DNA of 64,000 bases from an uncultured Planctomycetia bacterium (GCA_964649705.1 CAZYRM010000015.1:1119-65118), one strand, 5' to 3'; shown: positions 3,107 through 54,939, numbered from the stretch's first letter. The notes: generated from the letters alone by a model not told the origin. Numbers and translations are program-made.

Positions 3107-3901
3107 CTACTTCGACCGCGAGCGCGTCAGGGCCTTCGCCCAGGCGGCGTCCTCGGGTGAGAGGGGAGGGACGGGCGGCTTGCTGTAGTCGAGCATCGCC
3201 CAGTAGACCCCGGACCTGTAGACGTTCTCCATGAGAGACTGCAAGTCCACGGCCAGATCGGGGTCCCCCTTCAGCAGGGGAACGGGGAAGCGCGGCAGGC
3301 GATCCCGGAGCTTGAGCGGATAGACGTCTGCGCGCGATCGCCGGCCGGCGCGGTGGATGGCCACCAGGTAGTCGTACGGGCGGTGGGGGCGAAGCGCCCT
3401 GGGCGGCACGGCCACGGTGTGCTCCCCGCCGCGAAGGAGGTCGATCTCGATCAGATGGACGTCCGAGGACAGCACCTCGCGCTGCCTCTGGACGTACTTC
3501 TCGTAGCCGTCCGATCCTGGTGACTCGTTCGTCGGGGAGAGGACCTCGATCACGGTCACCAACCGTCCCAGGGCGCCGCCGAGCCGGATCTCGACGTTCG
3601 CCTGTTCCAGCTCCAGTGGGAGCGCTTCCAGGCTCACCGCCGGGTCGATCGTCGCTCCGCCAGCCCTCTTCATCGGCCTTCGCGATTCACGATACACGAT
3701 GACGTCCGGCCCGATAGGTCTGTTCTCGGCGGCCTCGACGACAACTCGAAAGCTGTGCGTTGCCACGTAACGCGGCGCCGTTCTTGCCGAGATGTTCCAT
3801 GCGAGCAGGCTGATGAGGCCGTGATGCGCGCTCGGCCAGAAGACAGGATCCTCGAGCCAGGGGTCCATACCTGGAAACAGGTACCGCCTCTTTCTCGCCA
3901 T
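3107..3901 (-). CDS. DUF4058 family protein (PD-(D/E)xK/Uma2-like)
   Basis: FPGMDPWLE, IEVLSPTNE and HLIEIDLLRGG are typical of this family. Confidence 0.85.
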   Translation of the reverse strand: MARKRRYLFPGMDPWLEDPVFWPSAHHGLISLLAWNISARTAPRYVATHSFRVVVEAAENRPIGPDVIVYRESRRPMKRAGGATIDPAVSLEALPLELEQANVEIRLGGALGRLVTVIEVLSPTNESPGSDGYEKYVQRQREVLSSDVHLIEIDLLRGGEHTVAVPPRALRPHRPYDYLVAIHRAGRRSRADVYPLKLRDRLPRFPVPLLKGDPDLAVDLQSLMENVYRSGVYWAMLDYSKPPVPPLSPEDAAWAKALTRSRSK

Positions 3902-3945
3902 ACTACCGGATTCTACGCCCATGGCCGGACAGCCGCAAGTAGCCG

Positions 3946-3976: not shown

Positions 3977-4903
3977 CTACCTCGGCATCGGGTGCTTCGC
4001 GAAGAACTCCCAGATCGCCTCGGAGGCGTTCCAGTCGCGGCAGACGGGGCCGAGCACCTTCTGGATCGCGGGGCCCGAGGGCCAGGTGTGGCCGCCCCCG
4101 GTGATCTTGTAGAAGACGACCTCGGCGCCGTCCTTGCCGGAGCCGTACGTCCATCGCTCCACGGTCGTGCCGTCGTCCTCGTCGGCGTCGGGGAGCTTCT
4201 CGATCGTGGGGTCGGCCTCGCAGCCGTCCTTCTCCGCCCACCATCGGGCGAGGTCCTCCGCGGAGAGGGACATCGCGCGGCCCGAGATCCGGTCCTTTCC
4301 GTCGTACCCGACGATCGGGTCCTCCGTGCCGTGGACGTACAGGACGGGCACCGCGCGAGCGGGCTTCCAGGCCTCGGCGGCGGGCTTGAGCATCGCGCCC
4401 GACACCGGGGCGATGGCGGCGATCCGGTCCGCGAGGTCGATCGCAAGGCGGTTGGAGAGGTACGCCCCGTTCGAGATCCCCGTGGCGTAGACGCGGCGTC
4501 CGTCGGCGAGGCCCGCCTCGACGAGCGCGTCGATCAGCGCGCGCACGAAGCCGACGTCGTCCGCGGCGAACCGATCGAGCAGCTTCGGCCGCTTCTCCCC
4601 GGAGCCCCAGTACCTCCACATGCGGTTCTCGCCGTCGGGGTAGGCGACGAGGAACCCCTCGCGGTCCGCGATGGGGGAGAAGCCGGTGAGCTGCTCCGTC
4701 TGCTTCCCGTCGGAGCCGAGGCCGTGGAACACGAGGACGAGGGGAAGCGGCGTGCCCTTCTTGAACGACTTCGGGAGGTGGAGGCGAAAGGTCCGGGGGC
4801 GATCGCCATGTCGAAGCTCGAGGTCGTAGGACCCGGGGCGGTCGATATCGGGAATGCCCTCCGCGTGGAGGGCCAGGGCGACGGCGAGGAACAGAAATCT
4901 CAT
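3977..4903 (-). CDS. Secreted PHB-depolymerase/LpqC-like esterase (alpha/beta hydrolase)
   Basis: Signal peptide; PLVLVFHG, VAYPDG, DDVGFVRAL, nucleophile elbow GISNG, HGTEDP, GGGHTWP. Confidence 0.9.
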   Translation of the reverse strand: MRFLFLAVALALHAEGIPDIDRPGSYDLELRHGDRPRTFRLHLPKSFKKGTPLPLVLVFHGLGSDGKQTEQLTGFSPIADREGFLVAYPDGENRMWRYWGSGEKRPKLLDRFAADDVGFVRALIDALVEAGLADGRRVYATGISNGAYLSNRLAIDLADRIAAIAPVSGAMLKPAAEAWKPARAVPVLYVHGTEDPIVGYDGKDRISGRAMSLSAEDLARWWAEKDGCEADPTIEKLPDADEDDGTTVERWTYGSGKDGAEVVFYKITGGGHTWPSGPAIQKVLGPVCRDWNASEAIWEFFAKHPMPR

Positions 4904-5028
4904 TTCTCAACTCGCATTGATCAACAGAGGCTCAAGAGGCAAACCCCAAGGGCTGTTCCAGCGATGCGGGAGGCTACGGTTGAGGGATTTGAACTCTGTT
5001 GAGAAATGCACATTGCGAAATGAGAATT
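4895..5028. repeat. Degenerate long palindrome of heptamer type
   Basis: Arm 4895-4935 (aaatctcatttctcaactcgcattgatcaacagaggctcaa) pairs imperfectly with arm 4989-5028 (ttgaactctgttgagaaatgcacattgcgaaatgagaatt). Confidence 0.75.
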
Positions 5029-5149
5029 CCCGCGGATCCTGGTCGAAGCGCCGCCGAATCGACGACCGCATGAAGAATCCCGCCCGACACGGGCGGGGAG
5101 CCCAATTCCCTCTCTCCGGGCTCGTCCATGCGCGAGGGGGCGCGCTCTA

Positions 5150-5179
5150 CCCCCGCGGCTGACCGGGTGGCGCCCCGGC
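5150..5179. repeat. 30-bp direct repeat, copy 2
   Basis: CCCCCGCGGCTGACCGGGTGGCGCCCCGGC. Confidence 0.9.
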
Positions 5180-5241
5180 CCTTCCGCTCCGTCCCCCTCT
5201 TTACCCTTTCGCCGAATCCACCGGACCCACTCGCCGCCGGC

Positions 5242-5514
5242 CTAGCGGCAGCCCCCATGGACAGGCCACGAGTGCGTGTAGTAGTGGGTATCCAGGTAGA
5301 CCCGACGGTAATCGCCCGTGGGCCACGGGTCCACGCACCAACCGTACCCCGTGTGGGAGTGCGTGTGGCTCTCCCACCAGGTGGCACAGTGGCCGTGGCC
5401 GTGACAACTGCCGTGACCGTGACAGGAGCCGCAGGCCAACGCCTCCGGAGAGGCGTACAGGCTCACGCCAATGGCCATGACAGCGCCCACGAGAAGATTG
5501 CAGAGAGACCGCAT
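5242..5514 (-). CDS. Small secreted His/Cys/Trp-rich peptide (90 aa)
   Basis: AAAGGAG RBS upstream of ATG 5514; signal-like MRSLCNLLVGAVMAIGVSLYASPEALA, then CGSCHGHGSCHGHGHC... Confidence 0.75.
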   Translation of the reverse strand: MRSLCNLLVGAVMAIGVSLYASPEALACGSCHGHGSCHGHGHCATWWESHTHSHTGYGWCVDPWPTGDYRRVYLDTHYYTHSWPVHGGCR

Positions 5515-5616
5515 GGAAATCTCCTTTCGGATGACCGCGGCCGTCTCTCCAACAGCGCCTCGACCGGAATCCGAGGGTCCATTGATATGACAGCAGTTCG
5601 GGGCGGGTCCATGCGC

Positions 5617-5704
5617 GTTCCCCTTCCCCTTCCCGTTCCCCTTCCCTTTCCCAGCGCGTGAGAAGCGCTGGGAAGGGGAACGGGAAAGGGAACGGGAAGG
5701 GGAG
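5617..5704. repeat. Palindrome of tandem TTCCCN / NGGGAA hexamers
   Basis: Six TTCCCN units + GCGC, a short loop, then GCGC + six complementary units. Confidence 0.9.
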
Positions 5705-5714
5705 GGCGAGGGAC

Positions 5715-6398
5715 TCACACCCCCAGCCGTCCGAGAAGGCCCAGGAACCGGATCGTGTCCCGGATCGGGCGGATCTTACTCTTCTCCGTGCCGTAGACGG
5801 TGGAGACCTCCGCCTCGCGGATGCGGAAGCCGCGGCGGGCCGCGCGGACGAGGATCTCGCTCTCCAGGTCGAACCCCTCCGTCGTCACGGAAACGTCGCG
5901 GAGCACCCGCGCGCGAAAGAGGCGAAAGCCGGACTGCGTGTCGCCGATCCGACACCCCGCAGCCAGCGAGAGGACGGCCGACATCGTCCGGTTCGTCCAA
6001 CGGCGCACGAACGGCATCTCGCGCGGGTCCAGCCGCCGCGTCCCGACGACCACGTCCGCTCCCGTCCGCTCGGCGCACGCGATCAGCCGCGGGACCTCCT
6101 CCGGGAGGTGCTGTCCATCCGCGTCGAGCGTCAGGACCGGGTCGGCGCCGTTCGCAAGCGCCCAGGCGAACCCCGTCCTGAGCGCCCCGCCCTTGCCGCG
6201 GTTCCGCTCGTGGACGATGACGCGGGCGCCGGCCCCGCGCGCCTCGGCCGCCGTGCCGTCCGGGGAGCCGTCGTCGACGACGAGGACCTCCGATACCACG
6301 GCGCGCAGCCGTCCGACGACCTCGCCGACGCGTCCCTCCTCGCGGAAGGCCGGAACGATGGCAACCGCGTGCAAGCCGGCCTTGCCAGCGCCGTTCAC
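5715..6398 (-). CDS. Glycosyltransferase family 2 (polyprenol-phosphate sugar synthase-like)
   Basis: VPAFRE, VVDDGSPDGT, NRGKGGA, DADGQH, DTQSGFR. Confidence 0.93.
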   Translation of the reverse strand: MNGAGKAGLHAVAIVPAFREEGRVGEVVGRLRAVVSEVLVVDDGSPDGTAAEARGAGARVIVHERNRGKGGALRTGFAWALANGADPVLTLDADGQHLPEEVPRLIACAERTGADVVVGTRRLDPREMPFVRRWTNRTMSAVLSLAAGCRIGDTQSGFRLFRARVLRDVSVTTEGFDLESEILVRAARRGFRIREAEVSTVYGTEKSKIRPIRDTIRFLGLLGRLGV

Positions 6399-7045
6399 AG
6401 CAGGGTCCCGGGTCGGCGCGGGTACCCCTTGTAGGAGAAGTTCAGGTTGAAGAGGGCGACGACGGCCTCAAGCACCGCTCCCGCCACGCCGCGCGCCCAG
6501 GGCGGCACGCCGGCCTCCTCCTGGGACGGAAGCTCCTGCGGACAATCCACGACGCCCCACTCGGGCCGCCCGGGGTAGACGAGCCGCCCGTTCGAAGGGC
6601 CGCCCACGACGACCCGCGCGTGGACCTCGGTCGCGGCGAACCCGGGGCCGATCCCGACGATCATCGGGGCGTCGAGCGGGTCGGGCCGCGTCTCGTGAGG
6701 GACGCCGGCCGCGTCGACGAGGACGATGGGCAGGAACCTCTCCTTCACGTCCGCCGCGGGGTCGGCGAAGACGGGCACCATCCCGTCTCCCCAGATGTTC
6801 ACGAACTCGAAGTAGTATTCGGCCTTCTTCGCGCGGAGGCCCTCCACGTCGATCTCGCCTTGGAGGAGGGCGCCCGCGAACGTGGCCCGGGGGAACGGCG
6901 TGCGCGGCGTCGGGAGCTCGGTCAGGGCGACGCGCGGGATCCCTGCGCCGACGAGGCGGCGCGCGATCGCGGTCCCGGCGCGGCCCGCGCCGCGGACCAG
7001 GATCGAGAGGTCGGAGAGGATCTTGATGTCGGTGGGAGATGCCAT
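6395..7045 (-). CDS. YqeB/EF2563-like protein, internally shortened
   Basis: ILVRGAG..GTAIARRL, TELPTP, FAGALLQGEIDVEGLRA, IGPGF and the C-terminal VAGAVLEAV resemble YqeB. Confidence 0.6.
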   Translation of the reverse strand: MASPTDIKILSDLSILVRGAGRAGTAIARRLVGAGIPRVALTELPTPRTPFPRATFAGALLQGEIDVEGLRAKKAEYYFEFVNIWGDGMVPVFADPAADVKERFLPIVLVDAAGVPHETRPDPLDAPMIVGIGPGFAATEVHARVVVGGPSNGRLVYPGRPEWGVVDCPQELPSQEEAGVPPWARGVAGAVLEAVVALFNLNFSYKGYPRRPGTLL

Positions 7046-7060
7046 CGCGGATCCGTCAGC

Positions 7061-7192
7061 CCCATATCAAATATCTCATATCAGATATCTCATATCACAT
7101 ATGGCCCGGAGCCGTGCTGTTGGAGAGCCCAATGGCTCCGGTATCGGGTCATATGTGATATGAGATATCTGATATGAGATATTTGATATGGG
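7061..7192. repeat. Perfect 43-bp-arm palindrome built of ATATCNN heptamers
   Basis: 7061-7103 is the exact reverse complement of 7150-7192; inner hairpin CCGGAGCC/GGCTCCGG. Confidence 0.97.
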
Positions 7193-7195
7193 CGC

Positions 7196-10100
7196 TCAGC
7201 GTACAAGCTCCATCCGTGCCTCCTCGGCGGCGTCTCCTTCCTGGCAGAACCTCACCAGCTCCGGGTACTTCTCCGTCGCCATTACCTGCGGCCCGATCTC
7301 GAGCTCGTGCCTCACCCGCACCGCGTCTCCCTCCATCCGCCACGTGATCGCCAACCGCCCGATCTCCCCCTGCAGGAGCACGTCCTCGGGCAGCTTCCCG
7401 ACCCGCCATCCGTCGGGGATGCGGATGACCGCCTCGGTCCGCGAGGCCTCCCACGACGGGATCCTGAGCGGCACCGTCCGCTCGCGCTCCTGGCAGAAAT
7501 TGCTCCTCAGCTTCGACCGAGGCGCCGGCAAGGGGACCTCCATCCGCCCCCCGCGCATGCGCCCGAAGGAAGGCGTGCGGAAAGTCGCCTCGACCGAGAG
7601 GGGCGACCCCGCCTCTCCGAGGCCGGGCAGCTCCATCTCCTCGAGCTGGAAGCCCAGGAAGAAGTTCGCCAGGAGCGTCTGGAAGATCATCTTCCTCTGC
7701 GGCCCCTCGACGCCCAGGAGCCGGTCCTTGTACGCCGCCGCAGCCACGCCCCGAAGGTCCAGGCGGACCTTCCCGACCAGCGTCCCGTCCTCGGAAAGCT
7801 CCCCCTCGAGCGCGACCGTGTTCCCCGAGGCCGACGGCGGCGCCGACGGGATCGTCACGAACCGCGGCTGGCGCGGGTCCAGGATCAGCCCGTCTCCTCC
7901 CTGGGCCAGCTCGGAGACCTGGCCGGCCCCGAGGAGCCTCGCGTCGCCCGAGAGCCAGAGCGCACCGTCCGGAAGCGGCACGCGGAGGAGCGGAGAGACC
8001 CGACCCGCCGAGAAGACGTCGGACCGTGGGACGTCCCAGACCGCCTCCCCGACGAGGTCCTCGCGCGGCCTGACGGCCACCCAGTCGTACCGGACGCCCA
8101 TCGCGTCGAGGACCGCCGCCGTGAGCGTCAGGATCGACCCCGAGCGCGTGGAGAGGATCGACTGCGCGTCGCCAAACGACTCCGTGTCCTTCACCCAGCC
8201 CTGCGCGAACCGATAGGCGGCCTCGGCCGTCTGGCGCGGCCCGGCGGCCTTCTTCAAGAGCGGCTCCGCGACGCGGCGGATCTCCTCGGTCACGCGCGCC
8301 TGGCCGAGCAGCGACTCCCGCATCGTCTCCACGACCTCCGCCCACGTCCTGCGCTCCGCCACCATCACGTACGGCAGGAGGTCCGTGTCCGGCGGCGACT
8401 TCGACTGCCGCTCGAGCATCGGCAGCCCCTCCGCCTCCCAGACGACCGCTTTCCAGCCATTGGGCGCCTTCGCGACGCCGCGACGCACGACGGGGCAGCG
8501 GTCGAAGCCACGCTCGCGAACCACGAGCCCAAGCGACTCGGGCCACTCGATGGCGAACCGGACATAGGTCACGGGGCCGCTCCGCTCCGTGTCGTGGAAG
8601 AAGAGCGACAGCGACTGCCCCTCCGGCGCCGGGGGCACCTCGCGGCGGAACCGCGTCTCGATCACGGAGCCGGGAACGAGGCCCGGCATCGTCAGCGTGC
8701 CTCCCTGGCCGATCTGGCTCGGCGAAAGGACCTTCCCGTCGGGGCGGAGGTTCCGCGCTTCGAGGATCGCCCCTTCCAGGCCCACCGCGCCGCCCGCCTC
8801 GACCGCCTCCTGCGTGTTGAGGCGGATCGCCTGGTGCGTCCAGACCGTCGCCGACCCGTCCGCGCGGAAGCGGACCACGACCTGGCGGAAGAGGTGATCG
8901 ACGGGTGCGCCGATCGGCCGCGGGGCCGCGCGCATCGCCTCGACGGCGTCGAGCCGGTACGCCTCCGGCGGCTCCTCCGACTCGCCTCGCAGCTCCGCAA
9001 GGAGAGCGAGAGACGGGCCATCCGATGGGTCGATCGAGAGCGCCTTCTCGAGGAGCGCGATTCCCTCCTCGTCGCGGCCGGAGCGGAGGAACAACTCGCC
9101 CATCCGCCTCGGATACGACGCCTCCTCGGGGACCAGCTTCCAGGCCTCACCGTAGGCATCCAGCGCGTCCCTGGTCCTCCCGGCATCGGCGAGGGCCTCC
9201 GCGAGGGCCGCGTGCGCCCCCGGATCGGACAGGTCCTGCCCGACTTCGGCCCGGGCGAAGGCGATCGTCCCCTCCAGGTCCCCGGTGGCCTTCGCCAGCG
9301 CCGCGATCTGACGCCTCGCGGAGGTCGACTTCGCCGAGAGGGCCTCGAATCGCTCCTTCGCCTGGGGGTAGTTCCCGAGGACGACCGACTCCATCGCGAG
9401 CCCCTCCGCGGCCGTGAGCGCTCCGGCGGCGCGGCGCTCCAGCTCCTCGAGGGCGTGGCGGGCTTCGATCCCCCACCCCTCGTCCTGCAGGATCTGGGAG
9501 GAGAGCAGCGGCCCGGCGAAGTGCGTCGGGTTGATCTCGGAGGCGCGCCTCAGCGCATCGAGGGCCTTGTCCGCGTGATGGTCCCGCTTGTAATACAGCG
9601 CAAGGTCCTCGAGCGCGGGGACGAACGAGGGGTCGATCGCGAGCGCCTTGTCGTACCAATCCTTCGCGCGGTTCCGCCGCTCGCTCTCGGGGACGTGCTC
9701 CGCCGTGTCGTAGAGCTCTCCGAGGAGGCAGGCGACGTGGGCGGACTTCGGGAGCAGCTCGACCGACCGCACGCCGGCGGCGAGGGCGCGATCGGGGACC
9801 TCTTCCTCGGAGAGGAGGAAGGCGCGCATGCTCGCGGCCCAGCCGCTCTCCCGCTCGACGGCCTCGTACGCGGCGAGCGCGCCCCAGGTGGACCACCGCG
9901 AGTCGCGGGCGGGCGCGCCGCAGGGGTGGAGCCCGGTTCCTTCCTCTTCGGCGAGGGCCAGCGGCTCGCCGCGGGCGTCCAGGAGACGGACGCGGAAGCC
10001 CTCCTCGTTGAGGAGCGACTTCACGACGACGCGGTTCCAGCCCGCGGAGAGGCGGACGGGGGCGACGAGCGTGCGGGGCAGCCAGGCGCGGAAGCGGTCG

Positions 10101-10726
10101 ACGTCCGGGAGGAGGCCCTCGTTCCACCAGACGCGGAGGGGGCCGCCGCACTCGACCCAGAGGAAGGCATCCGCGTCCGCCTCGGCGCGGACCTGGCAGA
10201 GCGCGTAGGCCGCGCCCTGGAGGGGGCGGAGGTAGCGGGAGGGGACCACGGGGACGAGGCCGGGGTACGGCCGCCACGAGCAGTCCGCGCCGCGTTCCGG
10301 CGCGAAGGAGGTCTCGAACGATGCGGCGTCGGTGCGGCCGTAGGGTCCCGAGACGCGCCAGTGGGAGAGGTCGCCGTCCCGGGCGCGGACCGTCAGCGCC
10401 GCCGCGTGGTCGCCCGTCTCGTCGAGCAGGCGCGCGACGTTGCGACGCAGGTGGAAGGCGTTGGGGCCGGAGAGGGCGCCATCGAGCTCGCGCAGGCGCG
10501 GCAGGTACGCCGTGGGGTCGGGGACGAAGACCTCGACGTTCTTCCAGGCGCGGAGGACGACCTCGACCTGGGGTGCCTCGGGGTTCGCGGCGGCGAGCGC
10601 CAGCCACTCGTCGAAGAGGCCGACGTAGTCGCCGCGCCGCCACGCCTCGGACTCCAGGACCTTGCGGTCGAGGTCGTCCTCCGCGCAGGCGGCTAGGGCC
10701 AGGACCAGGAGGAGGAGGATCGGCAT
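7196..10726 (-). CDS. Secreted/lipoprotein TPR + DUF3857 + degenerate transglutaminase-like protein
   Basis: LALAAC N-terminus; WRVSGPY jelly-roll module; TPRs; RQVVVRFRADGS...PGSVIE (DUF3857-like); no catalytic Cys visible. Confidence 0.75.
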   Translation of the reverse strand: MPILLLLVLALAACAEDDLDRKVLESEAWRRGDYVGLFDEWLALAAANPEAPQVEVVLRAWKNVEVFVPDPTAYLPRLRELDGALSGPNAFHLRRNVARLLDETGDHAAALTVRARDGDLSHWRVSGPYGRTDAASFETSFAPERGADCSWRPYPGLVPVVPSRYLRPLQGAAYALCQVRAEADADAFLWVECGGPLRVWWNEGLLPDVDRFRAWLPRTLVAPVRLSAGWNRVVVKSLLNEEGFRVRLLDARGEPLALAEEEGTGLHPCGAPARDSRWSTWGALAAYEAVERESGWAASMRAFLLSEEEVPDRALAAGVRSVELLPKSAHVACLLGELYDTAEHVPESERRNRAKDWYDKALAIDPSFVPALEDLALYYKRDHHADKALDALRRASEINPTHFAGPLLSSQILQDEGWGIEARHALEELERRAAGALTAAEGLAMESVVLGNYPQAKERFEALSAKSTSARRQIAALAKATGDLEGTIAFARAEVGQDLSDPGAHAALAEALADAGRTRDALDAYGEAWKLVPEEASYPRRMGELFLRSGRDEEGIALLEKALSIDPSDGPSLALLAELRGESEEPPEAYRLDAVEAMRAAPRPIGAPVDHLFRQVVVRFRADGSATVWTHQAIRLNTQEAVEAGGAVGLEGAILEARNLRPDGKVLSPSQIGQGGTLTMPGLVPGSVIETRFRREVPPAPEGQSLSLFFHDTERSGPVTYVRFAIEWPESLGLVVRERGFDRCPVVRRGVAKAPNGWKAVVWEAEGLPMLERQSKSPPDTDLLPYVMVAERRTWAEVVETMRESLLGQARVTEEIRRVAEPLLKKAAGPRQTAEAAYRFAQGWVKDTESFGDAQSILSTRSGSILTLTAAVLDAMGVRYDWVAVRPREDLVGEAVWDVPRSDVFSAGRVSPLLRVPLPDGALWLSGDARLLGAGQVSELAQGGDGLILDPRQPRFVTIPSAPPSASGNTVALEGELSEDGTLVGKVRLDLRGVAAAAYKDRLLGVEGPQRKMIFQTLLANFFLGFQLEEMELPGLGEAGSPLSVEATFRTPSFGRMRGGRMEVPLPAPRSKLRSNFCQERERTVPLRIPSWEASRTEAVIRIPDGWRVGKLPEDVLLQGEIGRLAITWRMEGDAVRVRHELEIGPQVMATEKYPELVRFCQEGDAAEEARMELVR

Positions 10727-10730
10727 CGAG

Positions 10731-12650: not shown

Positions 12651-12651
12651 C

Positions 12652-16353: not shown

Positions 16354-16363
16354 CGTGCCCCCG

Positions 16364-17980
16364 CTACCGGATGAACCTGGCGCCGCCCCAGTCCGCGCGG
16401 TCGAGCGTCTCCCCGTCGAAGATGTCCCCCTCGACGCCGCAGCGTACGACGAGGACGATCGTCTCGACACCCTCCAGGGAGACGGAGACGTCCTTCGCGT
16501 CCTCGCCGAACCGCACGAGACCGCTGTCGTAGAGGACCTTCGCCAGGTCCGGGATGCGCGTGACCGCGTCCCCGACGGCCGCCTCGAGGCAGCGGCGGTT
16601 CAGCCGGTCGACCTCGCGAGGCGTCCTCGCGGCCGCGTCCCTGGCGAGGATCGCCTTCGCGTCCTCGGCGAGATCGTCGGCGGGGAAGGCCTTCTCCTGC
16701 CAGAGGTCGGCCTGCGCGAGGGCGGCGTTCACGGCGTTGCGGACGGCGGCCTTCCGCGCGTCGGTCGCCTCTTCGCCCTCGGCGAGCTCCTGGACGGCCT
16801 TCAGCTCGCCCTCGCCCGTGATGAGCCCGGAGAACCGCTTCGACTTGAGGAGGGCGGCGCAGAGTTCCTTCCAGTCCTTCACGTGGGCGGTGTACAGGCG
16901 CAGCTCGGGGTCGACCTGGTCGATGGTCCCCTGAAACACCTGGAAGACGACCGATCCGCCGCTGCCGTCCGCGCCAGCGGACTCCTTGTCGAGGCCGACG
17001 GAGGCGCAGAACCTCTGATATCCTCCCGCGGGCTTGAACTCGAGGGCGCTGTAGGAGTGCACGCCGAGCCCCTTGCGGAATTCCCGCGTCTTGATCGTGA
17101 GCGGACCGCCCTTGTCGACGGCCCCGTCCCGGCGGAACGGGAACGGGCTGTTCTCCGGCCGCTCGGGGTCGTAGATGAACGGCCGCTCCCGCACGGCGGA
17201 GGGGTTCTCGTCGGAGAGGTACGCTACGCGTCCGTGGACGAAGTAGATGGCGCGCACCGCGGGCACGGGGACGGGGACCTCCTTCACGATGACGTGGTCG
17301 AGCTTGAGCGTCTGCCCGGTCATGGAGGTCAGCGTCCCCGTCAGCCGAGTCCCGCCGGAGCAGACGACGGTCGCGAGGAGCGTGTCCGGGGTCTTCACCG
17401 GCAGCGAGCTCCCCACGTACCAGCCCGCGATCTGCTTCCACTCGTACGTGACCTCGACGTCCTTGCGGCCCATGAAGCGGATGCCCTCCGGCGTGATCGC
17501 ATCGGCCGCCTCGGACGGGAAGCCGACGTTGGTGTCCTGGTTGATCAGGTAGATGCGGTCGGTGCCCTCGGCGGAGGCGGCGGCGTCCGACGGGACCTTG
17601 TCCTTGTTGTTGTCCGTCAGGACGAGGAGGCGGGAGACGTTCGTGAGCGGAAGCTCCATCCGTCCCATCTCGCCGGCCGCGATGACGATGTGCTCGGTAT
17701 CCCCGCTGGCAACCTCCCCGCGGATGACGTCGCCGTTCATGAGGACGACCTCGACCTGGGGGTTCCCGGCGGGGGCCCCGTCGTTGGCGGGGAAGGTGAT
17801 CTCGACGACGGTGTCGCAGGGGATCAGCTTCGACTCCCCGTCGGCGAGCGTGACGACGAGGTTGTCCCCGTCGACGGCGATGGCGGTCCCTGTCGTGACC
17901 TCCTCGTTCATGTCGAGGACGCGCACGTCGAGGGCGAGGACGGGGAGGGCGAAGGCCAGGCAGAGGGCGGCGCTGCGCAT
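16364..17980 (-). CDS. Secreted NPCBM/NEW2-domain protein
   Basis: Signal peptide; KGLGVHS...F.ASVGLD...GSVVFQV...LYDSG...ADWGGARF. Confidence 0.8.
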   Translation of the reverse strand: MRSAALCLAFALPVLALDVRVLDMNEEVTTGTAIAVDGDNLVVTLADGESKLIPCDTVVEITFPANDGAPAGNPQVEVVLMNGDVIRGEVASGDTEHIVIAAGEMGRMELPLTNVSRLLVLTDNNKDKVPSDAAASAEGTDRIYLINQDTNVGFPSEAADAITPEGIRFMGRKDVEVTYEWKQIAGWYVGSSLPVKTPDTLLATVVCSGGTRLTGTLTSMTGQTLKLDHVIVKEVPVPVPAVRAIYFVHGRVAYLSDENPSAVRERPFIYDPERPENSPFPFRRDGAVDKGGPLTIKTREFRKGLGVHSYSALEFKPAGGYQRFCASVGLDKESAGADGSGGSVVFQVFQGTIDQVDPELRLYTAHVKDWKELCAALLKSKRFSGLITGEGELKAVQELAEGEEATDARKAAVRNAVNAALAQADLWQEKAFPADDLAEDAKAILARDAAARTPREVDRLNRRCLEAAVGDAVTRIPDLAKVLYDSGLVRFGEDAKDVSVSLEGVETIVLVVRCGVEGDIFDGETLDRADWGGARFIR

Positions 17981-18041
17981 GAGCGGTCTCCATCGGGTCC
18001 TGAAGACCGCGATGATACTCCCCGGCACCCCGGCGAGGCAA

Positions 18042-20012: not shown

Positions 20013-20024
20013 CGCCGACTCCTC

Positions 20025-21191
20025 CTACACGACCGCGCCACCCGTGATGGCCCCGCCCTTGTCATCCCCCGCCGCCCGCGTCGCGGGCAGCGGCTCGTAG
20101 ACCTTCGCTCGATCGAGGATCATGCCCAGGACCACCAGGACCACGATCCCGGCCCCGGTCACCGGCAGGTACTGGGCCCTCGGCACCGAGGGGCGGGAGA
20201 TGTAGATCGCCACGCAGCCCGCCACCGCGGAGAAGAGGTACAGGAACAGGACCGCGCCGCGCTTCCCGAGCCCCAGCGCCGCCAGGCGGTGCGTGACGTG
20301 GTCCCGACCGCAGTACGTGATCGCCTCGACGACCCCCTTCACGACCCCGCTCTTCGCCCTCAGGATCGTCGAGAGCGTGATGTCGTAGAGGGGGACGACG
20401 AGGACGACGCACGGGATGATGATGCTCTTCACCCGGTCGGCCTGGGACCAGGCGCCGAGGATCGTGATCGCCGCGAGGAGGAAGCCGGTGAGGAAGGCGC
20501 CGTTGTTCCCGAGGTAGGTGCGCGCGGGCCCGACGGCGTTGTAGCGCAGGAACCCGAGCGTCGCCCCCGCGTGGGCGATCGACGCGAAGCTCACCCACCG
20601 CTGCACCTGCCGCCAGTAGGAGTTCTCGGGCCCCGTGGACAGGGCGGCGTAGTTCTCCCAGGCGATGACGAACGTGGTGAGCGCCGCGAGGACCGTCACC
20701 CCGCCCGCCGCCCCGTCCATGTTGTCGAGCGAGTTCATCGCGCTCGTCACGCCAACGATCCAGAACAGGGTGAGCACGGTGTTCGCCCACGCGAACGGCT
20801 GCTCGAACAGCGTCGCCGCGACGCCGAACCGCCCCAGGAGCCACGTCGCCAGGAACAGGACGAGGAGCTTCGCCACGGCCCAGATCGGCCTCATGTCGTC
20901 GATGACCCCGAGGACCAGGACGAACGCAGCGCCGAAGACGATCCCGAAGAGCGGGCGGTTCCCCTCGAACGATTCGAACCGCAGGATGGAGAAGATCGCC
21001 ACGGAGAACGCGAGGAAGATCCCCACGCCGCCAAGGAAGGCGACGGGGTGCTCGTGCGTCTTGTACGTGTGCGGGCGGTCCACGGCGCCCGTCCGGAGCG
21101 CGATCCAGATGAGGGCCGGGACGAGCAGGTCCGCGAGGAACCACGCGAACACGAACATGCCGACATGGGGTTGGTTCAAATTCTCGATCAT
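20025..21191 (-). CDS. MraY/WecA family polyprenyl-phosphate sugar-1-phosphate transferase
   Basis: LGGVGIF, LGVIDD, NSLDNMDGAAGG, YLGNNGA, RDHVTHRL; multi-TM. Start may be 21158. Confidence 0.9.
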   Translation of the reverse strand: MIENLNQPHVGMFVFAWFLADLLVPALIWIALRTGAVDRPHTYKTHEHPVAFLGGVGIFLAFSVAIFSILRFESFEGNRPLFGIVFGAAFVLVLGVIDDMRPIWAVAKLLVLFLATWLLGRFGVAATLFEQPFAWANTVLTLFWIVGVTSAMNSLDNMDGAAGGVTVLAALTTFVIAWENYAALSTGPENSYWRQVQRWVSFASIAHAGATLGFLRYNAVGPARTYLGNNGAFLTGFLLAAITILGAWSQADRVKSIIIPCVVLVVPLYDITLSTILRAKSGVVKGVVEAITYCGRDHVTHRLAALGLGKRGAVLFLYLFSAVAGCVAIYISRPSVPRAQYLPVTGAGIVVLVVLGMILDRAKVYEPLPATRAAGDDKGGAITGGAVV

Positions 21192-21230
21192 GGCCGAAAC
21201 ACGAGGGCCCAGTTCATCCGAGATCGACGT

Positions 21231-21366
21231 AACAATTCTCAATTCTCAATGAGCAATTCTCAACGAAGGCTCAGGTTCGAAAGGCCCAAGGCCCCGAACT
21301 CCGACACTTGAGACATTCGAATTTGAGCCTTCGTTGAAAATTGCTCATTGAGAATTGAGAATTGTT
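21231..21366. repeat. 43-bp-arm palindrome built of CAATNNN heptamers
   Basis: 21231-21273 pairs with 21324-21366 at 42/43 positions. Confidence 0.96.
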
Positions 21367-21378
21367 CCATGGCATCCA

Positions 21379-22137
21379 TCAGTCTCCCCTCTCCTCCTCC
21401 TCCATGTCTTCCGCCGGCGGCCCGTCCACCCATCCCCACTCGCCCTCGCCGCGCAGCACCGCGAGGCTCCGCGGCCCCGCGTTCATCAGCAGGTCGACCG
21501 CGGAGAGGTACGGCACGAACGGCCCCGCGAAGGCCTGCGGGTAGACCGGGTGGCGGAACTCCTGGAACACGAGCTTCACCCCCGCCTCCGCCACGCGCGG
21601 CAGGTCGAGGTAGTCCTTCCCGTGCACCCCCGAGAGGTACGCGTCCGCCCCCGTCTTCCGGCAGAGGTCGATCACCAGCTCCGTCCCCTTCCCACGGGCC
21701 CCCAATTCGCTCGACAGGTGGACCGGCTTCCGCAAGCCGAACATCTCCATCATCCCGCGTATCAGGTGCACCGACAGGTCCGCGAGCCGCTCCCAGCGCC
21801 TCGCGTACGTCTCACGGAAGAACCCGGCGTACTCCGCGTAGAAGGGGGCCGATCGGTAGTTCCACTCGATCGACTTCCCGTGCTTCTTCTCCCACCCCCT
21901 CGCGGGGTCGATCTCCGCCTCGCGGATCGTCTGGTGGAACCGCCCGTGCGTCTTGATCGGGACCGAGAGCCACGCCCATCCCTCCGGGGTACGGACGCGG
22001 TTCCGGTGCATCCATCCGAACGGCCCCCGCTTCACGAACTGGACGTCGTCGACGACGACGAAGGCGTCCGCCCGGTCGACCTTGTCGAAGAAGCCCAGGT
22101 ACGGCAGGTAGTTCGGCTGGTGCCCGGCCACCATCAT
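21379..22137 (-). CDS. wbqC: WbqC family protein
   Basis: MVAGHQPNYLPYLGFFDK...DDVQF...NR...YLSG...Y.Q...F.P.LS.VDLL; ATGA overlap with the upstream cyclase. Confidence 0.92.
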   Translation of the reverse strand: MMVAGHQPNYLPYLGFFDKVDRADAFVVVDDVQFVKRGPFGWMHRNRVRTPEGWAWLSVPIKTHGRFHQTIREAEIDPARGWEKKHGKSIEWNYRSAPFYAEYAGFFRETYARRWERLADLSVHLIRGMMEMFGLRKPVHLSSELGARGKGTELVIDLCRKTGADAYLSGVHGKDYLDLPRVAEAGVKLVFQEFRHPVYPQAFAGPFVPYLSAVDLLMNAGPRSLAVLRGEGEWGWVDGPPAEDMEEEERGD

Positions 22138-23081
22138 GTCGAGACGCGGCGCCCCCCCTGGCTCTTCGCCCGGTACATCGCCTGGTCCGCCCGCTTGACG
22201 AAGTCGCCGACCTTCTCCTCGTGCCTGACCTCGGCCACGCCGAGGCTCGCGCCCACGAGCGGCCCGACCCCCTGGTCGATCATCTCCAGGAGCCTCGCCG
22301 CGATCGGCATGGCGCGCTCGATCCCCACCTCGGGCAGGACCACGACGAACTCGTCCCCGCCGTAGCGATAGGCCGTGTCGACGTGGCGGCGCAGCGACCG
22401 GAGGACGATCCGCCCGACGCGGCGAAGGACCCCGTCCCCGCCGATGTGCCCGAAGCGGTCGTTGAACTCCTTGAACCCGTCCAGGTCGAAGAGGAGGAGC
22501 GAGAGGGGCCTCCGCTGCCGCTCCGCGCGGGCCGACTCGCTCGCGATCCGCGTGTTGAAGTGGGCGCGGTTGTAGAGCCCGGTCAGGTGGTCCGTGATCG
22601 CGAGCTTCTTGAGCTGCCGCTCCAGCTTCTTCCGCTTGCGGATGTCCTTCGAGACGCCGACCGTCCCGATCACCTCGCCCGCCTCGTTCCTGAGGAGCGA
22701 TAGCGTCACCGAGAGGTCGATCACCCGCCCGCTCTTCGTCTTGATCCGCGTCTCGTAGTCGACGACGCTCCCCCTCTGCTGGACCACCGACATCACGCGG
22801 TGGCGCTCGTCGGGCTCCAGCCAGATCATCGTCGCCGGCTTCCCGATCGCCTCCTCGCGCGTCCAGCCGAGCAGCCTCTCCGCGCCGCTGTTGAACTCCA
22901 CGATGCGGGAGTCGCGGTCGGTCGTGATGATCACGTCCGCCGAGTGATCGATCACCGCTTCGAGGTAGCGCACACGGTCGCGCAATGAGTCGACTTCCGC
23001 AGGGTCGTCCGTCCTTCCCTCCAGGGTCGCTCCTCCGCGCGGGAGATGGGTCTCTTCGCCACTGTGCATAGGTGTGTACAT
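22134..23081 (-). CDS. PAS-GGDEF diguanylate cyclase
   Basis: PAS (ADVIITTD...GVSKDI); TDHLTGLYNR, DLDGFKEFNDRFGH, RYGGDEF, MYRAK. Confidence 0.95.
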   Translation of the reverse strand: MYTPMHSGEETHLPRGGATLEGRTDDPAEVDSLRDRVRYLEAVIDHSADVIITTDRDSRIVEFNSGAERLLGWTREEAIGKPATMIWLEPDERHRVMSVVQQRGSVVDYETRIKTKSGRVIDLSVTLSLLRNEAGEVIGTVGVSKDIRKRKKLERQLKKLAITDHLTGLYNRAHFNTRIASESARAERQRRPLSLLLFDLDGFKEFNDRFGHIGGDGVLRRVGRIVLRSLRRHVDTAYRYGGDEFVVVLPEVGIERAMPIAARLLEMIDQGVGPLVGASLGVAEVRHEEKVGDFVKRADQAMYRAKSQGGRRVST

Positions 23082-23209
23082 TCGCCCGAACTATCCGTGG
23101 GCCATGTAGTAGCGAGCATTGTAATCGAGGAGTCGCCGTTGTCAAGCGATCAAGCCCCGGGGAGGCCCAAGATCGCGAGAATATGCAGGAGTGGGATACG
23201 AACTTCACC

Positions 23210-23995
23210 CTACCTGGGATCGGGCAGCGAAAAGCCCTGCAGTAAGGCGAAGCAGGAGAAGAGGATGAAGACGCCTATCACGCCGAGCCCCAGGGCGAGG
23301 AGGAGGGCGATCAGGCTCCTCCCTTCCGACAGGCGGTGCACCTGCCTCACGCCAAGATAGTTGAGGACAAGGACATAGATCATGCTGATGAGGAATCCGA
23401 ACGGGACGACGTCGAGGATGCGCGCCGTGAGGGAATAGAAGTAGATAGAGCAGGTCTTCTGAACCCCCCTCCCGCCGGCGAGCAGGACGCCCAGGTGGAG
23501 GGCCAGGGGAAAGACGACCAGCCCGACCGCCTCCGTAAGGACCTGGCCGCGGAAGACGGAGGGGAGCGACGGCATCAGGTCGAACGGCACCGCCCCCAGA
23601 CCGGCCGATTTCCACCAGTCCGCGATGGACGGACCGATCCGCCCCAGGAGCAGCCAGGTCTGGATCGAGGACGCCGCGTAGCCGATCAGGAGGAAGGGGA
23701 GTCCGACCCGGGCGGCCTGGCCGACGGTGGAGCGCAAGCCGCGCGCGGCGAAGAAGGCGGAGGGGGAGAAGAGGACGGCGAGCCACGCGCGCCCCTGGTC
23801 TTTGTCCGCCAGGACCTCGGGCGGGACGAAGAACGGGCCGGCGAACCCGGGCAGGGGCAGCCCCGACGGGGGAGGGGCGGGTGCGACGGCGAGGACCATC
23901 GCGCCGCAGGCGGGGCAGCGGATCCGCTGCCCGGAGAACTCGTCGCGGACCGAGAGCTGCCGGCGGCACCCGGTGCAGGGGAGGTCGATCGGCAT
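23210..23995 (-). CDS. Zn-ribbon + Yip1-domain membrane protein
   Basis: CTGC...CPAC N-terminus, VLFSPSAFF, about 5 TM segments. Confidence 0.7.
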   Translation of the reverse strand: MPIDLPCTGCRRQLSVRDEFSGQRIRCPACGAMVLAVAPAPPPSGLPLPGFAGPFFVPPEVLADKDQGRAWLAVLFSPSAFFAARGLRSTVGQAARVGLPFLLIGYAASSIQTWLLLGRIGPSIADWWKSAGLGAVPFDLMPSLPSVFRGQVLTEAVGLVVFPLALHLGVLLAGGRGVQKTCSIYFYSLTARILDVVPFGFLISMIYVLVLNYLGVRQVHRLSEGRSLIALLLALGLGVIGVFILFSCFALLQGFSLPDPR

Positions 23996-24243
23996 CAATC
24001 CAGCAAGCTGGCTCTGCCAGTCGCCGTTGGGACGGTCGCTCGCTGCCGCTCCATCTCGCGAAGGACCTCGATGAGCTGCTCGCTCGTGAGCGCGCCCGCA
24101 TCGAGGAGGTGCATGCCGATCAGCTTGTGAGCCTGTCCGTTCCCCTGGGCGCGCTTCTGCGTGGCGAGCGCCTGTTCGACCTGATCCCGCCTGACGAACC
24201 CCAACCGGACGGCGATCTCGCCGAAGAACTCCTGACGAGCCAT
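23995..24243 (-). CDS. Stand-alone MshEN-like protein (82 aa)
   Basis: Two motifs, FFGEIAVRLGFV...ALATQ and KLIGMHLLDAGAL...L. Confidence 0.7.
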   Translation of the reverse strand: MARQEFFGEIAVRLGFVRRDQVEQALATQKRAQGNGQAHKLIGMHLLDAGALTSEQLIEVLREMERQRATVPTATGRASLLD

Positions 24244-24256
24244 GGTTCCTCCCGGG

Positions 24257-25240
24257 CTACGCCCGATACCCTTCCGGATGCTCCTTCCGCCACCTCCAGG
24301 CCGACTCGACGACCTGCTCGATCCCGCTCCGCGAGGGGGTCCACCCCAGCTCGGCGGCCGCGCGCGCGTTCGACGCCACGAGGACCGGCGGGTCGCCGGG
24401 CCGTCGCGGGGCCGACCTCGTCGGCACGGGCCTGCCCGTCACGCGGCGCGCGGTGTCGATCACCTGGCGGACGCTCGTGCCCGTCCCCGTGCCGAGATTG
24501 TACGCGCGGTAGTGCCCCGGATCCAGACGGGAGAGGGCCCGCACGTGGGCGTCCGCGAGGTCCACGACGTGGACGTAGTCCCTGACGCACGTCCCGTCGG
24601 GGGTGGGGTAGTCCTCCCCGAGGATGTCGAGGGAGGGGAGCTTCCCGAGCGCGGCGAGGAGGCAGAGGGGGACGAGGTGGGTCTCGGGGCGATGGTCCTC
24701 CCCGAGGCCGATCTCGGGGGCCGCCCCGCTCGCGTTGAAGTAGCGCAGCGCGACGGCGCCCAGGGGCCACGCGGCGGTGGCGTCGCGGAGGGCCCATTCG
24801 AACGAGAGCTTCGATCGGCCGTAGGGGCTGATCGGCGCCTGGAGCTGGTCCTCGTCGATCGGGACCTGCTTCGGGATGCCGTAGGAGGCGCACGTCGACG
24901 AGAACACGATCCCCCGGACGCCGGCCTCCTTGCAGGCGGAGAGGAGGGCGAGGCCGCCGGCGACGTTGACGTCGTAGTACTCGCCCGGCGATGCCATCGA
25001 CTCCGGCACGAGCGCGAGCCCGGCGAAGTGGAGGACGGCCTCGGCGCGGGTCTTCGTGAGGGCGGCGAGGACGGCGGCGCGGTCGCGGACGTCTCCCTCG
25101 ACGAGCGGGAAGGACTTCGCCTGCTCGCGGAAGCCGCGGTAGAGGTTGTCGAAGAGGGTGACCTCGTGTCCGGCCTCGCGGAGACGCCACGAGGTGACGC
25201 TGCCGACGAAGCCGGCGCCTCCGGTGACGAGGAGCCTCAC
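24257..25240 (-). CDS. galE: UDP-glucose 4-epimerase
   Basis: [46 protein letters not shown]; GTGA overlap with the upstream gene. Confidence 0.93.
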
Positions 25241-26178
25241 TTCGTCCTCCCGGCGACCGACTTGTAGTACTCGTACGTCTTCCCCAGCCCCTCCAGGCGT
25301 GAGACGCCCGGCGACCAGCCGAGGATCCGTCGGGCGAGGGTCAGGTCGGGCCTGCGGACCTTCGGATCGTCCTGGGGGAGCGGATGGTAGACGAGCTTCA
25401 CCTTGGAGCCGGTGACCTGGAGGACCTCCCTGGCCATCTGGAGGAGGGGGATCTCCTCGTCGTTCCCGAGGTTGACTGGCTCGTGGTACCCGGACTGGAG
25501 GAGCCTCAGGAGCCCCTCGACGAGGTCGGAGACGTAGCAGAAGCTGCGCGTCTGGGAGCCGTCGCCGTAGACGGTGAGGTCCTCCCCTCGGAGGGTCTGC
25601 GCGAAGAAGTTGGGGAGGGCCCGCCCGTCGTCCAGGCGCATGCGCGGCCCGTAGGTATTGAAGATCCTGGCGATCTTGGAGTCGAGCTTGTGGACGCGGT
25701 GATAGGCCATGACGATGGCCTCGGCGAACCGCTTGGCCTCGTCGTAGACGCCTCTGGGGCCGACGGGGTTGACGTTGCCCCAGTAGGTCTCGCTCTGGGG
25801 GTGCTGGAGGGGGTCGCCGTAGACCTCGGAGGTGCTGGCGAGCAGGAAGGCGGCCTTCTTGGCCTTGGCGAGGCCGAGGGCGTTGTGGGTGCCGAGGGAG
25901 CCGACCTTGAGCGTCTGGATGGGGAACTCGAGGTAGTCCCTGGGGCTGGCGGGGGAGGCGAAGTGGAGGATCCAGTCGACGGGCCCGTCGACGAGGATGT
26001 ACTGGGTGACGTCGTGCCGGATGAACGTGAAGCGCGGATTGGAGGCGAGGTGGGCGATGTTGTCGGCATTGCCCGTGATGAGGTTGTCGATCGCGACGAC
26101 CTCGTGTCCCATGGCGAGGAGGCGGTCGCAGAGGTGGGACCCGATGAACCCCGCGCCGCCGGTGATGACCGTTCGCAT
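25237..26178 (-). CDS. UDP-glucuronate decarboxylase (UXS)-like NAD-dependent epimerase/dehydratase
   Basis: [57 protein letters not shown]. Confidence 0.93.
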
Positions 26179-26239
26179 GGGCGTTCTTGTACCACGATGC
26201 GCCCTGTTCGACAAATGCCCGTGGACGCGCGGCGGCGCG

Positions 26240-26370
26240 GGAGATCCCAGATCCCAAATCCAAAATCCCAACGAAATCCTACATCCCAGATCCCAAACTG
26301 GGTTCCATCGTGGTTGGGATCTGGGATGTGGGATTTCGTTGGGATTTTGGATTTGGGATCTGGGATCTCC
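26240..26370. repeat. 57-bp-arm palindrome built of A(G/A)ATCCC heptamers
   Basis: 26240-26296 pairs with 26314-26370 with one T.G pair; 17-nt loop. Confidence 0.96.
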
Positions 26371-26451
26371 GCGCCGCATCGCGCACAGGACCGGGCTTGA
26401 CAAGGGACTCGCCAGAGGCTACCGGAGACATGGTTCAGGGGGATAGCGGAC

Positions 26452-39047: not shown

Positions 39048-39150
39048 GGCCGAGCCCCGACAGGCCGAGCCCCGAAGGGGCGCCCCAAGTCAGCCAGGGG
39101 CGGAGCCCCTGGAACCACGTCAGGAGACGGAATGGAGCCCTGAAGGGGCG
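39048..39150. repeat. REP-like cluster of GC-rich hairpins
   Basis: GAGCCC(C/T)GAAGGGGCG at 39067 and 39135 flank the hairpin CCAGGGGC-GGA-GCCCCTGG at 39094-39112. Confidence 0.75.
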
Positions 39151-54901: not shown

Positions 54902-54939
54902 TTCTGTTGAGAACTGCGTGTTGAGAAATGAGGATTCCC
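54902..54939. repeat. Solo arm of the heptamer palindrome family
   Basis: ttctgttgagaactgcgtgttgagaaatgaggattccc closely matches 4994-5031. Confidence 0.75.

Follow-up and report, generated by a model that had tools for sequence, protein, structure and literature searches.

Heptamer-built intergenic palindromes in a groundwater bacterium: a probable REP/BIME-like family of dispersed hairpin repeats

Why should a GC-rich bacterial genome carry long, almost perfect palindromes between its genes, with AT-rich tandem heptamers as arms and a different heptamer at almost every site? The question is raised by a 64-kb stretch of DNA (64,000 nucleotides, CAZYRM010000015.1:1119-65118; hereafter the window, GC content 69 %) of an uncultured Planctomycetia bacterium from the Hainich groundwater metagenome, well H51, in which five such palindromes (A to E) and one solo arm are found. 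On balance, these palindromes are probably inverted doublets of a dispersed family of DNA hairpin repeats that resembles repetitive extragenic palindromes (REP), bacterial interspersed mosaic elements (BIME), and REP doublets forming hairpins (REPINs), with a heptamer-built module of ~36–43 nt as its basic piece.

Five palindromes and a multicopy module

An inverted-repeat scan of the whole window returned the five palindromes as its five longest inverted repeats; together with the solo arm, they lie where an original prediction, made by a model from the sequence alone, had placed them, although the arm length of 43 bp given there for two of them has to be replaced by measured arms of 36–60 nt. 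Palindrome A (4894–5029) has 36-nt arms (4894–4929 and 4994–5029) that are 81 % complementary and enclose a 64-nt spacer, and B (5614–5708) combines 44-nt arms of TTCCCC hexamers (5614–5657 and 5665–5708; 86 %) with a spacer of 7 nt. The 48-nt arms of C (7061–7192; arms 7061–7108 and 7145–7192; 98 %) consist of ATATCNN units around a 36-nt spacer, the 60-nt arms of D (21231–21366; arms 21231–21290 and 21307–21366; 90 %) of CAATTCT units around 16 nt, and the 57-nt arms of E (26240–26370; arms 26240–26296 and 26314–26370; 98 %) of AGATCCC units around 17 nt, with a weaker GC-rich complementarity that prolongs E to 26226–26383. The solo arm (54896–54937, minus strand) aligns with the arms of A and D and has no partner arm. 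Tandem Repeats Finder (TRF) assigned a period of 7 to C, D, and E and a period of 6 to B, an autocorrelation at lag 7 across the window revealed no arrays beyond those already known, and the arms are AT-richer than their surroundings (GC 0.29–0.55 as compared to 0.69 for the window). Exact inverted 12-mer pairs within 200 nt number 166 in the window, whereas 100 Markov simulations gave 20.9 on average and never more than 41. Folded as RNA, A to E reach minimum free energies of −54.7, −77.3, −94.3, −91.8, and −116.2 kcal/mol with z-scores of −5.3, −9.6, −14.5, −14.3, and −16.7, and none of the 200 shuffles made of each was as good; the solo arm is unstructured on its own (z +1.0). No Rfam family matches any of the palindromes.

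An assembly fold-back, a concern already voiced with the original prediction, is rejected as their source. In Logan unitigs of four runs, A and C are covered at the depth of a single copy, one 106-nt unitig (7074–7179) crosses the loop of C together with parts of both arms, and homologous palindromes occur in relatives assembled by other groups, so that four runs and independent assemblers support the palindromes. Of practical relevance, contigs stop at or beside these elements in several independent assemblies of the lineage and its relatives, as is expected of repeated or palindromic DNA.

Copy number was estimated in the source metagenome. Contigs of run X1 were placed on each element at a likeness of at least 85 % and depth was read per position. 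Only the outer ~37 nt of each arm show a rise in depth, to ~3–70 times single copy, and the additional copies have unrelated flanks. For D, depth is ~580–680 over 21233–21270 and 21324–21365 (~27-fold) as compared to 21–25 in the flanks and 44–73 (2–3-fold) in the centre; for E, it is ~315 and 1450 over the two arms (~15–70-fold), whereas flanks and centre stay at 9–21 and 26, respectively; and for A, 155 and 71 over the arms (~7-fold and 3-fold) and 21 in both flanks and centre. B reaches 10–18-fold already at 95 % likeness, with more than 20 different flanks and at least one other doublet that has a different loop, and C recurs at just one other locus. Other contigs that bear the module have unrelated flanks and a depth of 14–21, like that of this genome. 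As the centres stand at 1–3-fold and the arms at ~3–70-fold, the repeated entity is the ~37-nt module and the centres are site-specific. All module copies seen are intergenic, and the window holds five doublets to one singlet, with further doublets in relatives and at other metagenome loci. The arms belong to a multicopy dispersed-repeat family, a point that the original prediction had missed.

The anatomy of the module is most apparent in A, D, E, and the solo arm, which share one register, namely four site-specific heptamers (CAnnTCn) followed by a fifth unit, CAAC[GA][AG]A. From outer to inner end, the left arm of A reads GAAATCT CATTTCT CAACTCG CATTGAT CAACAGA, the solo arm GAATCCT CATTTCT CAACACG CAGTTCT CAACAGA, the D arm CAATTCT CAATTCT CAATGAG CAATTCT CAACGAA, and the E arm GAGATCC CAGATCC CAAATCC AAAATCC CAACGAA. 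Accordingly delimited, the modules of A (4894–4935, plus; 4988–5029, minus) have CATTTCT/CAATGTG units with the core CAACAGA around a unique 52-nt centre; those of D (21234–21274, plus; 21323–21363, minus) have 4 × CAATTCT and CAACGAA around a unique centre that is itself palindromic; and those of E (26241–26281, plus; 26329–26369, minus) have 4 × CA(G/A)ATCC and CAACGAA, followed by three more inner units. The earlier observation that D and E share TTCGTTG and four heptamers is thereby confirmed and extended, since the same layout recurs in A and the solo arm as TCTGTTG, and a profile comparison bore out that the arms at 4.9, 21.3, and 54.9 kb align mutually (solo module against the arm profile, E 1.7e-8, the solo module being itself a member of that profile). 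The core and its four units are also found in relatives, namely in the E arm of L016 and the D arms of L020 (handles of this kind denote related sequences). Searched with nhmmer over all DNA examined, the arm profile recovered its training arms only and did not reach the arms of mixed 6- and 7-nt units in L009 and L020.

B and C have the architecture and the ~36-nt length in common with A, D, and E, but not the core: the B arm consists of six TTCCCN hexamers (36 nt) and is capable of forming a G-quadruplex on one strand, and the C units follow NATATCN with a period-14 alternation. The proposal of a shared architecture with different unit sequences across sites thus stands. Units within an arm are non-identical, yet the two arms match unit for unit, and the centres of C and D are small hairpins themselves. 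At least four G3 tracts per array are present in B (GGGAAS) and E (GGGATNT) and in none of A, C, and D; G-quadruplex capacity hence does not appear to be common to the whole family. Further unit dialects occur in relatives: CAACTCC at site D of L020 and at 3754–3873 of L009, CAATGTG with 83-nt arms at site E of L020, GCGAGGG/GAGAAGG at 6254–6393 of L020, GATTGCG at the end of L013, and CAATCTC at the start of L010.

On a gene map drawn from third-position GC content (GC3) and Pfam scans of the window, every element is intergenic, except that the outer end of A, which lies upstream of an esterase gene, overlaps the start codon of that gene (4901–4903). B begins 6 nt past the stop codon of a GT2 gene and separates that gene from a small one; C fills the gap from the stop of a 1176-aa TPR/DUF3857 gene to the start of a 216-aa gene; D, with the WbqC stop codon on one side and the GT4 start codon on the other, is 39 nt upstream of a start codon; and the solo module is located 93 nt upstream of an AAA_26/DRTGG gene. 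B, C, and D start 3–12 nt after stop codons. E has an epimerase gene and a 1257-aa TPR/DUF1570 gene as its divergent neighbours and lies ~30 nt upstream of a TTGACA box. The earlier placement of the palindromes along a co-directional gene run needs a minor correction as to E, which does not sit inside the run but in the divergent gap that ends it.

Turnover and paired change of the arms

Syntenic loci from three to six related lineages were retrieved via homologues of the 216-aa protein (75–85 % identity) and of the 1257-aa protein (87 % and 58 %), and a scan of a metagenome collection added two more loci, both from already known lineages. Site B is occupied only in the window. It is missing in L006, L009, L010, L014, and L015, and in these five relatives the GT2 stop codon runs straight into the conserved GCGCATGGA motif. 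The same holds within the sampled community, where a co-occurring strain has a 39-nt stretch in place of window positions 5593–5721, which include the 95-nt palindrome, and where the contig pieces on each side differ from the window by one letter. The filled site reads TGA-GT[element]GCGCATGGAC and the empty one TAG-GCGGATCC-GCGCATGGAC, with no direct repeat or target-site duplication seen in this comparison.

Apart from the window, the closest lineage (L006/L011) alone has site C occupied. The element of L006 has the same unit type and differs in sequence, unit number (six units left and four right, as compared to 6–7 in the window), and centre, and its 28-nt arms are nonetheless 100 % complementary. 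The corresponding gap measures 38, 38, and 0 nt in L013, L015, and L010, respectively; L013 has a 17/22 match to the right arm of L006, with a score of 24 that lies within the range of 500 shuffles (maximum 25). In a minority strain, the outer arms of C are kept around a different 28-nt centre. At site D, the orthologous palindrome of L020 is made of CAACTCC units and retains the TTCGTTG core, and at site E the CAATGTG palindrome of L020 again stops a little upstream of a TTGACA box; in this 58 %-identity lineage, both D and E are thus occupied, by different unit types. In the 87 %-identity lineage, represented by four independent assemblies (L016–L019) whose contig ends ~290 nt upstream of the TPR gene, the right arm of E is conserved, the left arm is down to 12 nt, and unrelated sequence lies upstream. 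This sequence (positions 1–150), which replaces the left arm, is of lower GC content and could be an insertion into the palindrome. At the site of the solo arm, neither doublet nor singlet was found in the relative represented by L024–L026, only a GC-rich palindrome of another family.

These comparisons bear on whether the palindromes could be empty sites of a mobile cassette, as had been suggested. No relative was found to have a gene between the arms, which argues against this idea; the sole cassette candidate is L016 with its unrelated sequence in place of the left arm, where the contigs end too soon to tell. Arms that vary without compensatory change would have spoken against selection on structure; instead, compensatory change accompanies variation in C versus L006, E versus L016, and D versus L020. 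At C, the window and L006 differ in sequence and each is 98–100 % self-complementary, and at E, the left arm of the window carries the window-specific states of the right arm when compared to L016. The two arms of a pair thus change together, which calls for structural maintenance or templated copying of some form. Judged from the same alignments, elements are gained, lost, and replaced on short time scales, with some sites staying occupied while their sequence is replaced.

Likeness to known repeats and the weighing of explanations

From these observations, we infer the following course of mobilisation and correction. Two modules would pair as a hairpin or cruciform of 35–60 bp in single-stranded or supercoiled DNA, and modules or doublets would spread to new intergenic sites via an enzyme encoded elsewhere or via recombination between copies, the best precedent for the enzyme being an HUH/Y1 transposase of the REP-associated tyrosine transposase (RAYT) type. 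Complementarity would be kept because only hairpin-forming doublets propagate and/or because intrastrand template switching (quasi-palindrome correction) copies arm onto arm, and the centres would be diversified by breakage and repair at the hairpin tip. Singlets, such as the solo arm at 54.9 kb, the 12-nt left arm of L016, and the 17/22 remnant in L013, would be precursors or decayed leftovers. Effects on the host would be secondary: the elements would part formerly adjacent genes, bring AT-rich promoter-like hexamers and, in one case, a start codon into a genome of 69 % GC, and place a very stable hairpin 3–12 nt past stop codons.

The closest comparison is with REPINs, that is, inverted REP doublets that form hairpins, are mobilised by RAYTs, decay into singlets, and show excisions in population sequencing (Bertels & Rainey 2011, PMC3116915). 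In common with REP, BIME, and REPINs, the present family has an extragenic module of ~35–40 nt in many copies, mostly in inverted pairs and in several subfamilies per genome, singlets beside doublets, no target-site duplication, polymorphism within the population, and a placement just after stop codons. In contrast to REP, the module consists of heptamers in tandem and is not itself a palindrome, has no GTAG-type head, carries its conserved part (CAAC[GA][AG]A) at the inner end, and folds, when solo, no better than shuffles; in contrast to REPINs, the centres are unrelated between copies and no RAYT gene was seen among 37 proteins scanned in the 64-kb window; and the host belongs to a deep groundwater lineage and is not a proteobacterium. 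Since the single module is not palindromic and a RAYT could be searched for only within 64 kb, we describe the elements as working like REP/BIME and do not class them as members of that family.

Neisserial Correia elements, which are MITEs (miniature inverted-repeat transposable elements) of ~100–150 bp with terminal inverted repeats, are intergenic and multicopy as well, and can supply promoters and stems cleavable by RNase III. Despite the likeness in length, terminal inverted repeats, intergenic position, and copy number, a classical MITE, whose copies have their interior in common, stem from a parent insertion sequence with the same ends, and create target-site duplications, is rejected, as the centres are not shared, no insertion sequence (IS) lies in the window, and the filled and empty states of site B reveal no target-site duplication; the flanks of E are inverted complements, not direct repeats. 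Integron attC sites and cassettes were likewise considered and rejected: their R'' (RYYYAAC) and R' (GTTRRRY) boxes would stand at the outer ends of the palindrome, after short promoterless cassettes and beside an intI gene, whereas CAAC/GTTG stands at the inner end of the module and agrees at only six of seven positions; the genes next to the elements are long, with up to 1272 aa, and keep their synteny in relatives, and no integrase domain was found. Intrinsic terminators are rejected in view of AT-enriched stems of 36–60 bp that lack a T-run. As for phase-variable repeats, the unit number does differ at C between the window and L006, but the units are heterogeneous, four sites share a fixed count, and neither a reading frame nor a promoter spacer is obviously affected.

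Tandem heptamers have been described in several further settings. Xanthomonas campestris and X. axonopodis contain ~185 GGGAATC heptamer arrays with 70–75 convergent inverted pairs per genome, and Nostoc contains GGGGA(T/C)T arrays (Rehm et al. 2015, PMC4692102). Like the present arrays, those of Xanthomonas are intergenic tandem heptamers of a GC-rich genome; from one related species to another, they differ in length and sequence but usually retain the single or paired type, and the units of E (GGGATCT/GGGATTT) and B (GGGAAS) are similar to those of Xanthomonas and Nostoc and could form G-quadruplexes; however, Xanthomonas has essentially one unit in arrays of free length (up to 14), as compared to several unrelated unit types in a fixed five-unit module here, and A, C, and D are not G-rich. 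In Geobacter metallireducens, three classes of paired sites on opposite strands and at variable distance consist of four tandem octamers, three 8–9-mers, or five tandem heptamers, with 8–24 pairs per class; they are absent from G. sulfurreducens, ISs lie at a fixed distance from some of them, and their interpretation as sites for integration host factor (IHF) or HU is those authors' guess (Aklujkar et al. 2009, PMC2700814). The parallels are tandem short units in opposite-strand pairs, several classes per genome, and lineage specificity; in contrast, the unit sequences are unrelated and no IS is seen next to the elements, the replaced left arm in L016 being the one possible case. Finally, the TAACTGA direct repeats of marine Beggiatoaceae and cyanobacteria (MacGregor 2015, PMC4679880) and the short tandemly repeated repetitive (STRR) heptamers of cyanobacteria are also intergenic, patchily distributed, and often placed directly upstream of start codons, but the TAACTGA repeats are direct and gene-oriented, with one inverted case in 170 sets, whereas the inverted pair is the rule here. 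The kind of element is therefore already known and does not constitute a new kind of system; new are the fixed five-unit module with its conserved fifth unit, the coexistence of unit dialects, and the dynamics at the population level. Several phyla carry intergenic tandem heptamers, often as inverted pairs, and the present locus gives an unusually clear view of both their anatomy and their dynamics. As gain and loss take place within a natural population and the Hainich wells are sampled repeatedly, time-series metagenomes could be used to test whether such repeats are mobile elements, mutational by-products, or regulators.

Several points weigh against a REP/BIME-like mobile repeat. The single module is not self-complementary, unlike classical REP, and the centres are not common to the copies, so that, unlike in REPINs, it is not obvious that the entire doublet is what is copied. 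Depth was taken from a metagenome and not from a closed genome and may include related organisms, and neither the 1176-aa protein nor the aligned 216-aa family retrieved a relative from a genome collection, which leaves the lineage without a complete genome. No transposase, recombinase, or integrase domain was detected among the 37 window proteins scanned, so that mobilisation in trans is pure inference. In addition, the occupation of D and E across diverged lineages could reflect host selection for a hairpin at these places and not selfish spread. The same lasting occupation hints that a selfish repeat may be co-opted at particular sites, and the REP/BIME-like interpretation and the three alternatives that follow are not mutually exclusive.

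An unlikely alternative is that the arrays are local heptanucleotide microsatellites, built by slippage in AT-richer intergenic DNA and copied, along with neighbouring sequence, by a fold-back template switch from a solo array across a small hairpin already in place, without any transposition; likeness of units between sites would then stem from a mutational bias common to them or from gene conversion. In many bacteria, no long simple repeat is commoner than the heptamer, with slippage as the usual explanation (reviewed in PMC4679880, PMC4692102), and the differing unit number at C, the existence of solo arrays, the unique centres that are often small hairpins, and the lack of a target-site duplication at site B all fit this scenario, as does the complementarity of E, which continues past the module into the GC-rich flank as fold-back copying predicts. 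Slippage alone, however, does not yield modules that are at least 85 % alike at ~3–70-fold depth with unrelated flanks. It would moreover be expected to run freely, whereas the module length of four units and a conserved fifth is fixed in A, D, E, the solo arm, L016, and L020, and it does not sit well with units that are heterogeneous within an arm and still match between arms. Quite unlikely, in our estimation, is that DNA- or single-strand-binding proteins, such as nucleoid or global regulators, recognise the modules as arrays of sites, with one paralogue per unit type; the inverted pairs would then serve as symmetric operators or loops for adjacent promoters. Such a role would suit the position of E and its L020 counterpart (ending 5–30 nt upstream of a TTGACA box), the contact of A and D with start codons, the persistence of D and E in diverged lineages, and a module that stays near 36 nt, footprint-like, whether made of 6-mers or 7-mers, and the analogous Geobacter pairs have been so interpreted (PMC2700814). 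Against it, sites that follow each other at 7 bp do not line up on a single face of the duplex, no function is common to the flanking genes, the same site carries different unit types in different lineages, and several cognate proteins would be required; furthermore, the neighbouring genes manage without the elements in close relatives and in the co-occurring strain, where orthologous sites are empty.

Very unlikely in our view, the long stems could act at the RNA level, as RNase III sites, as protectors of 3' ends, or as factor-dependent or bidirectional terminators that divide the 21-kb run; the original prediction had similarly proposed RNA signals segmenting a super-operon. REP elements have secondary roles of this type (RNA processing, protection, and termination) in enterobacteria, the RNA hairpins are predicted to be very stable, stop codons lie just ahead of B, C, and D within a co-directional run, and no other terminators are predicted in those gaps. 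Were pairing kept in the mRNA, mismatches would be expected to favour G·U pairs on the sense strand. Among the arm mismatches of seven of the eight tabulated elements, those between co-directional genes (E left out), nine are G·U-compatible in the sense strand, 15 in the antisense strand, and 22 in neither, that is, there is no sense bias. Terminator scans revealed neither a T-run after any stem nor a terminator-like site at any of the palindromes, the gap that holds E is a divergent promoter region outside the interior of a transcribed operon, and close relatives and the co-occurring strain lack the elements at orthologous sites, with a C gap of as little as 0–38 nt. The super-operon proposal is not upheld by these results, and action at the DNA level appears more likely than action at the RNA level. 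Side effects on expression are nevertheless likely. An outward-facing TTGAGA-17-GAGAAT match, of a kind that is rare here (0.1–0.3 expected per region), is present in both D arms and in the right-hand arm of A, and the outer heptamer of A supplies the esterase start, which reads ATG AGA TTT in the window and ATG CCG CGA TTC in L006, both encoding M-(P)-R-F.

Beyond a REP/BIME-like family as known from other bacteria, a more far-reaching variant, which we regard as very improbable, is that a dedicated protein writes or reads the module by gauging nucleic acid in steps of 7 nt, such as a multi-domain single-strand-binding transposase or a templated-synthesis enzyme; the unit types could then, equally improbably, be specificity variants that co-evolve with the paralogues of this protein. 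If true, this would amount to a new class of hairpin-based mobile element and would also explain the heptamer arrays of Xanthomonas, Geobacter, Beggiatoaceae, and cyanobacteria.

Host lineage and neighbouring features

The succinyl-CoA ligase beta subunit SucC (57305–58465) has three relatives at 88–91 % identity and then none above 63 %, the named matches at up to 63 % stemming from Planctomycetia, Brocadiia, Binatia, and Acidobacteriia. The sole Rfam match in the window is an Acido-Lenti-1 RNA (39068–39112, minus strand; RF01687, 42.7 bits, E 2.6e-6). Taken together, the drop in SucC identity and this RNA point to a host from a deep, taxonomically isolated groundwater lineage, which was not found in a collection of species-representative genomes by protein and alignment scans.

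Two further repeat families were encountered in the relatives. A GC-rich palindromic family, GGAGCCCTGAAAGGGCG..., occurs at unrelated intergenic sites of a 76 %-identity lineage (L009 6143–6197, L012 198–252, L024 163–227, and L026 197–261). Another repeat, TGGAGTCGCGCCCGCGTGCAC, forms four tandem 21-mers in place of site C in L009 (9874–9960; L012 3930–4010) and is also present inside a palindrome downstream of the TPR gene of L016 (4116–4209) and at 17064–17088 of L006.

The small gene beside B (5242–5515, minus strand) encodes a His/Cys-rich protein of 90 aa with a hydrophobic N-terminus and no Pfam match, which might be a metal-binding secreted peptide, and is kept as an open reading frame of 86–90 aa in every relative. 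Just downstream of it, a stretch of ~190 nt (5055–5241, minus strand) is conserved in all lineages, even where the next gene differs (L006 11703–11890, L009 11673–11855, L010 5357–5545). RNAalifold predicts 50 pairs for this stretch, five of them with compensatory changes, and it ends in a terminator-like hairpin (5079–5097); it may be a structured 3' untranslated region or a small RNA. The motif GCGCATGGAC (gene strand; GTCCATGCGCG on the plus strand) brackets the small gene upstream and downstream (5125–5135 and 5607–5617), is kept at both places in relatives, and may represent a pair of regulatory sites.

Small accessory genes of the four-helix-bundle or GxxExxY families, with which heptamer tracts had been associated in the original prediction, are not found at the locus, and the association is without documentation in the literature examined. 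A DUF4058 gene (3107–3922, minus strand) between the esterase and histidine-kinase genes is missing at that position in L006 and represents an accessory-gene insertion that adjoins palindrome A and has no heptamer array of its own. The epimerase beside E likewise varies between lineages: the window gene (25237–26178) encodes 313 aa without an intein, and its counterpart in L020 (7417–9747) encodes 776 aa that include an intein (Intein_splicing and LAGLIDADG).

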